Positions 36,789 through 40,709 of a DNA stretch of 64,000 bases are shown in pieces. The notes below the pieces were generated by a model. That model ran no database searches, was not told where the DNA came from, and worked only from the letters and a program-made list of their open reading frames with translations. How positions within the stretch are numbered: the stretch's first letter is position 1; each line of letters opens with the position of its first letter. Source of the stretch: Escherichia phage vB_EcoP_WFI101126. A program made the position numbers and the translations under genes. The stretch lies in the sequence record NC_070991.1, one strand, 5' to 3'.

Positions 36789-37025
36789 TCACTCTGCCAA
36801 TGCAGGTATCTCTAATCTCTTAATTGTGAATGCTTTGTCTGGAAACTTTCGAACTAGCTCCACTGCTTTGCTAATTGCTAAGTTCTCTGTTTCAAAGATA
36901 CAGAATTGACCATTCAGCGCGGTAATAGTGGAGCCACCACTGAAGATGGCCCAAGATTTATAATAACCACGAACGCTCATAACCCACCTTAGTGCGTATG
37001 CATCCAGTTTAGTCCAATCTGACAA
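36789..37025 (-). CDS. hypothetical protein (78 aa)
   Basis: ORF track. Confidence 0.4.
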   Translation of the reverse strand: MSDWTKLDAYALRWVMSVRGYYKSWAIFSGGSTITALNGQFCIFETENLAISKAVELVRKFPDKAFTIKRLEIPALAE

Positions 37026-38833
37026 TCAGAAGCCAGAGGACATTCCATGTTCAAATATTCACCCGCTTTCTTAACACAAAGCTCAGTGTGTTCTTTGAGT
37101 TTCTGTACATCATTACGATTCACTGAGAATTGGCCCTCATCGTGCATATCAATTACCTTAGCACAACGAACCCTATCCCTCTCAATCCACTTGTTTAGGA
37201 ACATCATAGCATATTTCATAACAACAGCACCAGCACATTGCAGGAGAGTGTTAAGTGCTTTATGAACCATAACCTTACCAGTGGCATCTCGTCTCATTGT
37301 AATCTTACGACCATCAACACCAATCAAGTATCCTTGAGCAGCTTTCTCTGTCATACGATCAATGAGGATTGCAATACATGGGTTCTCTGCCAAGAAACGT
37401 GCTCGCATCACTGAACCTTCGTCAGCCCCACCACCTACAATTGAACCAAGCTTAGCGTCTCCAGCACCGTAGTTGAATGCATAGATAAACGTTTTAGCAT
37501 TGTCACGAGTAGGAAGACCAGCAAGTTTCTGGTTGTGGGAGTGGATATCGCCTTCAAGGAGGATATCACGATACATAATAGCAGAAGCTAAACCACGTTC
37601 TGCCAGAGCTTTCTTAGCTGGATTGTTTTCTTCTATCGCTTCAGCAAGCATATCCCTACACTCTTTAATGAGGTAGTGAGCGAGCATACGAAGCTCAAGT
37701 CCAGAACCATCATACCCTAAGAATACTTCTTTACCAGCGGGTATGTAATATTTGTAAGCACCTACAGGTTTGTCTTTCTTCCCCGGCTTACCTTTCTCGT
37801 AAATTACGTTAGTACCTTTTCGTATATAACAACCATCAGGAACAACGTTAGTAATAACGAAAGGACGAGAATGATCACTGTCTGAGTTATAGTCAGACTC
37901 AAACAGACTGCGACACTCGTGACCAAACAGACCACGGGAGGGAATATTAACCACGATACGATGTTTGAATCGAAAAGTCGGAGTAGCGCAGCTGTTAGCT
38001 TCTGCCGAAAGTTTACCATCTTCGCGTTCCTTTGCTATGAGTCCACTGATAAGACCTAGCCTGTGAGCCGCTACAACGCGTCTCTTAAGCAAACTTCCGA
38101 CACTCCCTAGCTCACCCCCTAGCCCCTCTTCAAGAGTCTCCTCGAGGTTTGTAGGAGCTGTAGGCCACTTGTTTGATGTGGCTAGTGCTTTCTTAATCTC
38201 ATCAAACGTTACAGGATTACGACGATTAGGGTTCAATCCCAAACCAAATACGTAAGCCTTCATATAGTTCTTAGTCTTAAACCTGAAATGCTTTTCTAAG
38301 AACTTCTTAATATCAGCGTCAACCATCTCGGCTGTCTGCTTCTGTTTAGCATTGCCTCGCATCCAAGCAGTGTACCATGCTTGATACGTTCCATACTTTC
38401 TCATATCTTTCTTAATTTCGAAAGTATTCCAAGGCTTCTTAGATACATTAAACTCTGGAGGAAGAAAGCCCTCATCCATAAGAGCTTCTTTAACTCGAGC
38501 ATCTTTCGATGGGTCAAAGTCTACGTATTCAACACAGGTGAAAGCTCCACCAATATCTTCTCTTTTCAGCCCAACCCTATCACAATAGGCTTGAGGCCAC
38601 TTCTGTAAAGCTCCAGACTTCTTAAACGGCTTCATATAAGTAGAGCCGTCTAATCTCATCTTAGGTAAGAGAGGAATCAACTCTCTGTCAATATTAACAA
38701 TAATCTCTTTAAGGAGGTGAACATACCACCGAGCATTTCTTCGGTTGAAACTCACTCCGTGCTTTGCTTGCTTAGAGATTATATCAGCGACAGTCATCTC
38801 TGTCAAAAATGGAAGAGCGTCCGGGTTGCTCAC
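36989..38833 (-). CDS. DNA polymerase, family A, polymerase domain only
   Basis: 614 aa; RDNAKTFIYAFNYGAGDAKLG (motif B) and VIDMHDEGQF (motif C); no exonuclease motifs in this ORF. Confidence 0.85.
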   Translation of the reverse strand: MSNPDALPFLTEMTVADIISKQAKHGVSFNRRNARWYVHLLKEIIVNIDRELIPLLPKMRLDGSTYMKPFKKSGALQKWPQAYCDRVGLKREDIGGAFTCVEYVDFDPSKDARVKEALMDEGFLPPEFNVSKKPWNTFEIKKDMRKYGTYQAWYTAWMRGNAKQKQTAEMVDADIKKFLEKHFRFKTKNYMKAYVFGLGLNPNRRNPVTFDEIKKALATSNKWPTAPTNLEETLEEGLGGELGSVGSLLKRRVVAAHRLGLISGLIAKEREDGKLSAEANSCATPTFRFKHRIVVNIPSRGLFGHECRSLFESDYNSDSDHSRPFVITNVVPDGCYIRKGTNVIYEKGKPGKKDKPVGAYKYYIPAGKEVFLGYDGSGLELRMLAHYLIKECRDMLAEAIEENNPAKKALAERGLASAIMYRDILLEGDIHSHNQKLAGLPTRDNAKTFIYAFNYGAGDAKLGSIVGGGADEGSVMRARFLAENPCIAILIDRMTEKAAQGYLIGVDGRKITMRRDATGKVMVHKALNTLLQCAGAVVMKYAMMFLNKWIERDRVRCAKVIDMHDEGQFSVNRNDVQKLKEHTELCVKKAGEYLNMECPLASDCQIGLNWMHTH

Positions 38834-38849
38834 TTTATACTCCTTTGAA

Positions 38850-39272
38850 TTATTGGTAAAGTAAATCTGTAAATGCTTGGTTATCTTCTACCACACCTAA
38901 CATGGTAGCTTCATCACTATAAGCTCTAACCGACCCATTGACAACTGTCCAAGGAGGGGGCGGAGGAGGTATATGTGTAGCTCTGGCTTCACGAGGTTGT
39001 TCTCGTACCAGATGAGCCACAACTCTCTGATTAGCAACCTCTTCCCTTTCTCGAATAGCTCTTTGAATGTAAGCCAGCTTCATACCCCAAGCTTCTTCAA
39101 ATTCTTGAGGGTGCTTATCGCTGATAACCACATACTGACGTTCAGGAATACCAGAGCGAATCTCTGATAATAATTCATGGAACAGGTCCAGTTCGTGCTC
39201 AGTGAGATTCATTTCAATATCATCCCACTTGAGAACTAGGAAACGGTTTTGGTGTCTAGCTGGTAATGGCAT
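38850..39272 (-). CDS. hypothetical protein (140 aa)
   Basis: ORF track. Confidence 0.45.
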   Translation of the reverse strand: MPLPARHQNRFLVLKWDDIEMNLTEHELDLFHELLSEIRSGIPERQYVVISDKHPQEFEEAWGMKLAYIQRAIREREEVANQRVVAHLVREQPREARATHIPPPPPPWTVVNGSVRAYSDEATMLGVVEDNQAFTDLLYQ

Positions 39273-39435
39273 CCTACTCCACCTCTACTTCAATGTAAGT
39301 TCTCTCGCCAACATCGTCTTTTAAGACCCATGACTTGGCATCTTCTTCCGACTTAAAAGCTTTCACAACGCTGTATCCGCCTTCCCATTCATCACCGAAC
39401 CAGCGCTGTCCTACGTAAATGTATTCTTTCATCAC

Positions 39436-39720
39436 TCAACCTTTCGGGAATGGCATTAAAAATTCTACAGCAGATTTGATTTCGTTATTGATTCGTGAAT
39501 CACGGTAAGAGATAAACTTACCTTTGCTGTCACGTAACATCACATGGGTTCTGGCTGTTTTGTGAGGAAGCAAAGTGATACTGGTTGGGATAGTATCAAT
39601 TCCTACAGAGAATGAATTAATAGTCTTACTTTCTACTAGCAGATAAGACCAAGTACGGGGTTTCTGCTCCGGGCGGTTGGGGTATGTATCTCTAATCTGA
39701 ACCATAGCTAACTTATTCAT
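39436..39720 (-). CDS. hypothetical protein, tandem paralog A
   Basis: Shares ARTxVxLRxxxGKFxSYxxxxxxxxxxxAxExLxPFPKG with adjacent gene. Confidence 0.5.
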   Translation of the reverse strand: MNKLAMVQIRDTYPNRPEQKPRTWSYLLVESKTINSFSVGIDTIPTSITLLPHKTARTHVMLRDSKGKFISYRDSRINNEIKSAVEFLMPFPKG

Positions 39721-39721
39721 A

Positions 39722-39976
39722 TTAAACTCCTTTAGGGAATGGGATGAGGTTTTCTATTGCAACACGGAAAGATTTTTCTACATCTTTGTTTTTATAAGAA
39801 AGGAATTTACCATCAGCGCCACGAAGGATTACGTTAGTGCGAGCTGTATTTGGGTTTTGTTGAATCATAGAACGAATGATGTTCTCTGAACCTCTGTGTT
39901 TATTGGTGAATTTCCAACTGATAGTTTTACCGGTACGAGTTACATCAATGATATTTACAGATTTTACAATAGACAT
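39722..39976 (-). CDS. hypothetical protein, tandem paralog B
   Basis: See paralog A. Confidence 0.5.
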   Translation of the reverse strand: MSIVKSVNIIDVTRTGKTISWKFTNKHRGSENIIRSMIQQNPNTARTNVILRGADGKFLSYKNKDVEKSFRVAIENLIPFPKGV

Positions 39977-40045
39977 ATTTATTACCTAAGAAGTTTAATT
40001 TGGTTTATATAAAAGAAAAGGCCACCTGATTAGGCAGCCTTTGTT

Positions 40046-40339
40046 CTAGAGACGAAGACAAGTTTGGTAGTCGGCTTCAGTGTAATGGTTATTTCGAGAA
40101 TCGTTTTTCATTTCCTTAAGAGTAGCCCTCAAGTCAATGTTACGCTCTCTCCTTGTCCTATTCGGGTCTGTATCTTCTAATAGATGGGAGTGATCACTAC
40201 AAGAGTAGTGCTTATAGTGGTCCCTGTATCCCCTACTTGGAGAATACTTGGTCATTAAAGTTGCAACTCTTTTTACACCCTCTGATTTACAGAATTTACA
40301 ATAAGTGTGAATTGTACATCTTTTTGTTTCTGCTGACAC
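40046..40339 (-). CDS. Cys/His-rich small protein
   Basis: ORF track; CTIHTYCKFCK...HYSCSDHSH. Confidence 0.45.
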   Translation of the reverse strand: MSAETKRCTIHTYCKFCKSEGVKRVATLMTKYSPSRGYRDHYKHYSCSDHSHLLEDTDPNRTRRERNIDLRATLKEMKNDSRNNHYTEADYQTCLRL

Positions 40340-40349
40340 TATAACCTCT

Positions 40350-40664
40350 TTATGAGCTTAAAGCTCCTTTGCGTGCTCCAGCTGCTTTTCCAGCTCGATC
40401 ACCACTTTTGCCGCCGTTTGAACGGTTTGAGCTGACTGATTCAACACGTAAGTTGCTTGACGCATTAGAACCTTCAGACTTGACAGCTCGTTTGTGTCCA
40501 ACATCTTTACCTCTGACAGCAGCTTTTCCATCGCGCTTTTCAACGATGCGACGTGCACGGTGGCGCTGAGCATCTCCGCTCTTGCTCCCAACGCCTGTCT
40601 CACCACGGGCAATTGCGGTACGTCTTTCTTGTGCATAATCTCTCTTTCCTACATGATCTGCCAT
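40350..40664 (-). CDS. basic Gly/Lys/Arg-rich protein (104 aa)
   Basis: AAGGAG 6 nt upstream of ATG 40664; a second overlapping ORF (40358..40636) is open in another frame. Confidence 0.4.
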   Translation of the reverse strand: MADHVGKRDYAQERRTAIARGETGVGSKSGDAQRHRARRIVEKRDGKAAVRGKDVGHKRAVKSEGSNASSNLRVESVSSNRSNGGKSGDRAGKAAGARKGALSS

Positions 40665-40699: not shown

Positions 40700-40709
40700 G
40701 TATACATTA
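40700..40709 (-). promoter_or_regulatory. TAATGTATAC motif, 35 nt upstream of ATG 40664
   Basis: Read directly. Confidence 0.4.

Follow-up and report, generated by a model that had tools for sequence, protein, structure and literature searches.

Two hypothetical proteins of a phiEco32-like Escherichia coli phage as ancient tandem paralogs upstream of the DNA polymerase gene

The main finding obtained in this work is that two adjacent genes for hypothetical proteins of Escherichia phage vB_EcoP_WFI101126 are, as sequence comparison shows, ancient tandem paralogs within a middle-phase cluster of replication and nucleotide-metabolism genes. The window, that is, the whole stretch of 64,000 nucleotides analysed (NC_070991.1), comes from a Kuravirus, a phiEco32-like E. 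coli podovirus of the subfamily Gordonclarkvirinae, and the 1.6 kb around the pair shares 96.6% identity with Escherichia phage Ptacy1532 and 90-94% with myPSH2311, MN03, SU10, ES17 and others. Both genes are open reading frames of the minus strand, the upstream paralog encoding p84 (84 aa, 39722..39976) and the downstream one p94 (94 aa, 39436..39720). They lie between phi32_58-like and DNA polymerase genes in the gene order of phiEco32 (phi32_58, 57, 56, 55, 54 and 53, the polymerase), with 67% identity of p84 to phi32_57 and 99% of p94 to phi32_56; on sequence and position they are thus assigned as orthologues of phi32_57/phi32_56 (SU10_054/SU10_053). Both are catalogued, as hypothetical proteins, in PHROGs and in the GenBank records of about 100 phages. 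In the literature searched, no paper names phi32_56/57 or SU10_053/054 or reports a function, structure or paralogy of the pair, and the svsR paper makes no link to these genes; the preliminary description of this DNA, which had called their function unknown, agrees with the libraries and papers searched. The 84-aa orthologues are labelled 'autotransporter adhesin' in the GenBank records of ES17, DE5, XT73, EC.W2-6, EC.W8-1, CHD5UKE1 and 172-1, a label that finds no support in their sequences and is probably a propagated annotation error.

The preliminary description had proposed that the two genes encode paralogous small proteins sharing the motifs ART.V.LR...GKF.SY and PFPKG. Both motifs are present in both genes within 39436-39976 (as ARTNVILRGADGKFLSY with AIENLIPFPKG and ARTHVMLRDSKGKFISY with AVEFLMPFPKG), and the paralogy was borne out by a significant BLASTP alignment (20/40 identities or 50%, 75% positives, 48.9 bits, E=2e-14) and by full-length matches of both proteins to PHROG 6814, a family of unassigned function (E~1e-37; residues 1-84 of p84 on profile positions 1-86 of 86, E=7.6e-38; residues 1-94 of p94 on positions 1-85 of 86, E=6.9e-37). 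The proposed similarity across most of their length holds as homology detected by profile, but it overstates the pairwise similarity, since the BLASTP alignment is confined to the last 40 residues; the N-terminal halves have diverged beyond what a pairwise search detects and share M1, V7, I9, D11 and W21 in the family alignment. A local duplication had also been suggested, and here the paralogy and the tandem layout stand but the event was not recent in this genome: the copies are about 36% identical overall and, when 17 family members were compared in an identity matrix, each copy proved nearer to the copies of other phages than to its neighbour, so that a recent local duplication was rejected.

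The layout of the two genes is compact. A single base separates them (TAA-T-ATG), and a Shine-Dalgarno sequence of p94, AAGGAG (39727..39732, minus strand, read from the sequence), lies inside the last p84 codons (P-K-G-V), 6 nt before the ATG; its position within the end of p84 suggests that translation of the two genes is coupled. Downstream on the same strand follow a 53-aa gene 3' of p94 (39274-39435), the 140-aa gene p140 (38850-39272) and the gene of a 614-aa family A DNA polymerase (38833..36989), and from p84 to the polymerase the genes are closely packed with coupled start and stop codons. Upstream, also on the minus strand, are a 97-aa Cys/His-rich gene (p97, 40046-40339) and the 104-aa gene p104 (40350-40664).

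Alignments of 32 and 51 diverse members define a family signature made of a TARTNV..G[KR]F.S[YF] hairpin and an L.PFP tail. In p84 numbering, M1, T47, G56, S60, F80 and P81 are invariant among the 51 members, and D11, T44, A45, R46, V49, R52, F58, Y61, L77 and P79 nearly so; both window proteins carry all signature positions (D11, A45, R46, T47, V49, G56, F58, S60, L77, P79, F80 and P81). The hairpin, predicted as beta3-turn-beta4, has the consensus T-A-R-T-N-V-x-L-R-x3-G-K/R-F-x-S-Y-K/R, and R46, R52 and K/R57 are kept even in members with a pI of 4.6-5.7; the pI values of the window pair are 10.6 and 10.1. From these alignments the N-terminal half appears weakly constrained, and the hairpin and the PFP tail are nearly invariant. 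Structure prediction, one of the checks suggested for the pair, gave AlphaFold2 models of p84 (pLDDT 78, pTM 0.65) and p94 (pLDDT 82, pTM 0.72), both with the order beta-beta-alpha-beta-(beta)-alpha and a flexible C-terminal tail. Scans of both proteins against Pfam-A, NCBIfam and PADLOC returned only sub-threshold chance matches, a Pfam scan of the 51 members gave no match above the curated cut-off, and a profile search of PDB sequences gave nothing below E=0.06, the best match being a beta-hairpin in a GH18 accessory domain. The structural search with the models gave no convincing match, the weak top ones being p56, Dmd and T7 Gp2. An internal repeat of an N-terminal and a C-terminal hairpin-helix (VNIIDVTRTGKTISWKF and TNVILRGADGKFLSYKN) was also considered and found no support at family level, with an hhalign probability of 0.6% and only VxIRD aligned.

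Word-seeded searches of 5.8 billion proteins recovered only close relatives, on contigs of about 77 kb. When 1.84 billion representative proteins were searched exhaustively with a profile, 29 clusters at 50% identity were recovered, 27 of which comprise proteins of 79-103 aa; the other two hold long repetitive proteins that match through a generic beta-hairpin. Among 50,697 records of cultured phages, about 97 have the family, all of them Gordonclarkvirinae of E. coli and Shigella, and more distant members lie on metagenomic contigs of 33-107 kb. Judged from these sequences, the family is small and appears limited to phiEco32-like phages. On all contigs examined, a p104 homologue comes before the family gene or genes and a DNA_pol_A gene of about 610 aa, which encodes an exonuclease-less family A DNA polymerase, comes after them, and the distance to the polymerase gene ranges from 25 nt, as in L015, L016 and L023, to five small genes (0-5 genes between). 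This address holds also for phages whose polymerase shares no more than 69-74% identity with that of the window. LUZ24-like Pseudomonas phages have a related polymerase and p104 and no detectable family member; gp39 of DL54, considered as a LUZ24-like member, is an unrelated coiled coil and was rejected.

Several observations concern the neighbouring genes themselves. The protein p104 is very basic (pI 11.3), carries an HNH-like motif (D-x-G-H-K-x6-G-S-N-x3-N-L-x7-N), gives no match in Pfam and is strikingly well conserved, being present in 250 phage records, with 60-65% identity to those of LUZ24-like Pseudomonas phages, where the gene adjoins the exonuclease subunit of the polymerase (LUZ24 gp26, DL54 gp40). 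Its label 'Cas8 protein' in Ptacy1532 looks like a mis-annotation. The 97-aa gene, zinc-ribbon-like and placed between p104 and a terminator-like hairpin, is present in SU10, Bas90 and Ptacy1532 and absent from phiEco32, Paul and Bas91; an HNH endonuclease gene occupies its slot in SGF2 and lies just upstream of p104 in Bas86, which together point to this interval as an insertion hotspot. In some relatives the polymerase gene is itself interrupted by an HNH or homing endonuclease (L019 7044-8417 and 9440-9724; L014 from 5010 onward; L008). In L019 an HNH_3 ORF splits the polymerase into two parts, and the annotation of SU7_50 reads homing endonuclease.

The number and type of copies vary among relatives. 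The phi32_57 and phi32_56 pair is found across Kuravirus; Suseptimavirus SU7/ECBP2 and contigs L019 and L021, metagenomic relatives of 87-96 kb, have tandem pairs made of other subtypes; a single copy is found in Bas92, L009, L015-L018, L020, L022 and L023; and in KBNP1711 a phi32_57-type copy is followed by a different, acidic 92-aa subtype. Since one or two copies, of differing subtype, occupy the same slot in closely related phages, the sequences fit an old duplication with later exchange and loss of cassettes. The downstream copies of SU7/ECBP2 and L019 are 71-76% identical; horizontal transfer was considered as an explanation and rejected, L019 being a close relative (89% in both polymerase and p104).

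Divergence within the slot is also uneven. In 17 Kuravirus-like genomes compared with the window, the polymerase, p104 and PhoH are 85-100% identical, while p84 ranges over 58-94%, p94 over 37-99% and p140 over 38-99%, and phages with polymerases 98-100% identical may differ by 25-33% in p84. The p140 gene varies as much as the pair does (38-99% among genomes with polymerases 87-100% identical) and the 53-aa gene is present or absent across relatives; taken together, the genes from p84 to p140 form a variable island flanked by conserved ones. In 15 distinct sequences of p84 orthologues, codons 12-45 occur as at least six alleles, with dN of 0.51 and dS of at least 1.19 (saturated), and the stretch from TART to the end gives dN of 0.036 and dS of 0.46. 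The raised dS of codons 12-45 points to old alleles moved by recombination; positive selection is not demonstrated by a dN/dS of about 0.4 in this variable part.

As for the transcription of the pair, a pattern search found an exact TAATGTATA upstream of p104 (40701..40709, minus strand), the consensus element of the phiEco32 middle/late promoters recognized by gp36-sigma (PMC8948821). In SU10, the homologous site between CDS56 and CDS57 is listed as a middle promoter. CDS25-68 of SU10 and the polymerase cluster of phiEco32 are middle genes, a class to which the pair is assigned by homology. It is likely, on this sequence match, that TAATGTATA starts a unit that takes in p104, p97, a hairpin, both paralogs and the DNA polymerase gene. 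The hairpin was found by a terminator scan directly upstream of the pair (40017..40042, minus strand), where a spacer of 69 nt separates the 97-aa gene from p84; it is G+C-rich, with an 11-pair stem and a 4-nt loop followed by the T run TCTTTTAT, the architecture of an intrinsic terminator. An equivalent hairpin with a T run precedes the family gene directly on every contig examined, lying in the same place in 12 relatives (L005, L006, L014, L015, L017, L019-L023, L009 and L025), and the stems vary yet stay complementary (GGCTGCC/GGTGGCC, GGGAGGGC/GTTCTCCC, CCCGCTAGA/TCTAGTGGG). The SU7 record annotates the equivalent hairpin as a terminator; it is absent from the terminators listed for SU10 in S2 Table of the SU10 paper. 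The hairpin may attenuate the polymerase-proximal genes relative to p104, and we infer that middle-phase expression of the pair would come from transcription reading through it. An SU10 lysate yielded 34 proteins, which include CDS51 (the polymerase), 55 and 56 (the p104 counterpart) and neither the p84 nor the p94 counterpart; for proteins this small, such an absence is uninformative. A promoter that matches the sigma-70 consensus perfectly (TTGACA, 17 nt, TATAAT, with extended TG) was also observed on the minus strand at 38778-38806, within the first 20 polymerase codons on the coding strand.

What the pair does can at present be proposed only tentatively. The reading that we favour, as a possible one, is that p84 and p94 are non-enzymatic binding proteins of a middle-phase replication operon, with a beta-beta-alpha-beta-beta-alpha fold, and that their basic hairpin contacts nucleic acid or a replisome partner. 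That they would be non-enzymatic is suggested by their being small, featureless proteins with no enzyme family match in Pfam, NCBIfam, PADLOC or PDB sequences. The beta3-turn-beta4 hairpin, with its basic and polar residues, and the C-terminal L-x-P-F-P tail would make up the functional core, a surface that would touch a partner conserved across the whole phage clade, most likely nucleic acid or a phage replisome component, during the replication phase; the hairpin Arg, Asn, Thr, Ser and Lys and the Pro-Phe-Pro are kept across phages presumably of different hosts, which argues for a conserved binding partner. The weakly constrained N-terminal half would be swapped between phages as divergent alleles. 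Two copies might form a heterodimer or represent two variants of a single activity, and one copy seems to be enough in some relatives, given the single copy of Bas92 and several metagenomic phages.

The main rival, held to be slightly less likely than this reading, is that the proteins are host-takeover or anti-defence inhibitors, whose variable N-terminal half would track variable host proteins such as replication-triggered defence nucleases or sensors, with several subtypes and copies widening the range of targets. The variability described above speaks for such a role: p84 and p94 range among Kuraviruses down to 58% and 37% identity where the polymerase, p104 and PhoH keep 85-100%, the N-terminal half of p84 has its several alleles, KBNP1711 has a different subtype in place of the second copy and Bas92 lacks that copy, and the neighbours p140 and p53 vary too. 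The pair also consists of small proteins without enzyme motifs, and the weak top fold matches are small phage inhibitors. The location among middle genes, the basic charge of the pair, a dN/dS below 1 and the conserved polar core speak against this role.

It is improbable that the family is a dedicated accessory subunit of the exonuclease-less polymerase, for instance a processivity or tethering factor docked through its PFP tail. Replisome proteins dock on each other by short peptide motifs, such as the tail of T7 gp2.5, and the short conserved C-terminal tail of the family resembles such docking peptides by analogy; the close packing and coupled start and stop codons of the genes from p84 to the polymerase, which lies 25 nt away in three contigs and a few genes away elsewhere, would also suit a subunit. 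However, polymerases that are nearly identical are accompanied by differing p84 alleles, and the LUZ24-like phages have a homologous polymerase with no detectable family member, which together make an obligatory polymerase subunit unlikely; the copy number of one or two, and the 7-11 group discussed below, which keeps the hairpin only and lacks the PFP tail, are further arguments against it. No better odds are given to a replisome-associated counter-defence module, a similarly improbable scheme in which the family would be a new class of modulator of the replication phase, the hairpin and PFP tail would dock on the phage replisome or on replicating DNA, the rapidly exchanged N-terminal half would shield the protein from variable host factors or redirect it to them, and the paralogs would widen the host range. 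That the proteins are transcription factors, working on host RNA polymerase or at promoters and terminators of the phage, is very unlikely, for although they are small and basic, come from a phage known to reprogram RNAP and are encoded right after a conserved terminator-like hairpin, they match no helix-turn-helix or other DNA-binding family, and a relationship of the AbrB/MraZ type was rejected.

Kuraviruses are in development for phage therapy of pathogenic E. coli and serve as a model for phage transcription driven by a sigma factor, and the majority of their middle genes still lack annotation. With the present analysis, two 'hypothetical proteins' become a defined family with a signature, an address, an invariant core and a swappable half; the analysis also gives experimenters specific residues and constructs, and corrects the misleading labels 'autotransporter adhesin' for the family and 'Cas8 protein' for p104. 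The paralogy, the family signature, the address after the hairpin and upstream of a split polymerase, the link to the 7-11 group and the cassette-like evolution are new here. If the proteins were a replisome-linked factor of host range or counter-defence, the finding would bear on choosing and engineering therapeutic phages; if they are only a dispensable accessory protein, it is an ordinary one. Overall, we regard the result as solid yet ordinary, the description of an uncharacterised phage accessory family with tandem paralogs.

The family can also be set against other known systems. One of these is the 7-11/GAP52 group (Grimontviridae), in which a protein of about 89 aa (SaPh711_gp065, GAP52 gp062) occupies the same slot, upstream of a MazG-like pyrophosphatase gene and then of a polymerase gene whose product is about 47% identical. 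Only the RTNV-x-V-RD-x2-3-GRF hairpin is common to these proteins and the family (hhalign probability 92%, E=6e-7, 23 columns); in the 7-11/GAP52 proteins it stands at the extreme C-terminus, without the helix that follows it in the family and without a PFP tail, and the N-terminal part is unrelated in sequence. That the hairpin alone is common to both groups suggests that it is the conserved functional element. Three proteins of this kind (L033 2995-3264, L034 2980-3255 and L025 3604-3870) have two GRF-type hairpins, an N-terminal YREYTTKGRFVS and a C-terminal RTNVxVRDxxTGRF, which hints, from sequence, at an internal repeat in the proteins of the 7-11/GAP52/PKM.Lu.22.1 group. The 'DSKGR[FL]' turn and the beta-beta-alpha-beta-beta order of the family are superficially like the D-x-K-G-R-hydrophobic hairpin motif and the order of elements of the AbrB/MazE/MraZ swapped-hairpin proteins, but membership of the SpoVT/AbrB-MazE-MraZ superfamily was rejected, with hhalign probabilities of 1.2% for MraZ and 0.3% for AbrB and no Pfam match among the 51 members. 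The phi29 UDG inhibitor p56, T4 Dmd and T7 Gp2 are small phage-encoded inhibitors built of a three- or four-stranded sheet plus helix; their scores against the window pair are at noise level, with sequence identities of 2-13%, and they lack the TARTNV and PFP motifs. Neither an acidic DNA-mimic surface nor significant structural similarity, as expected of a UDG inhibitor of the p56 type, was found for the pair, and p56 and Gp2 are acidic, whereas the pI of the window proteins is 10.1-10.6.
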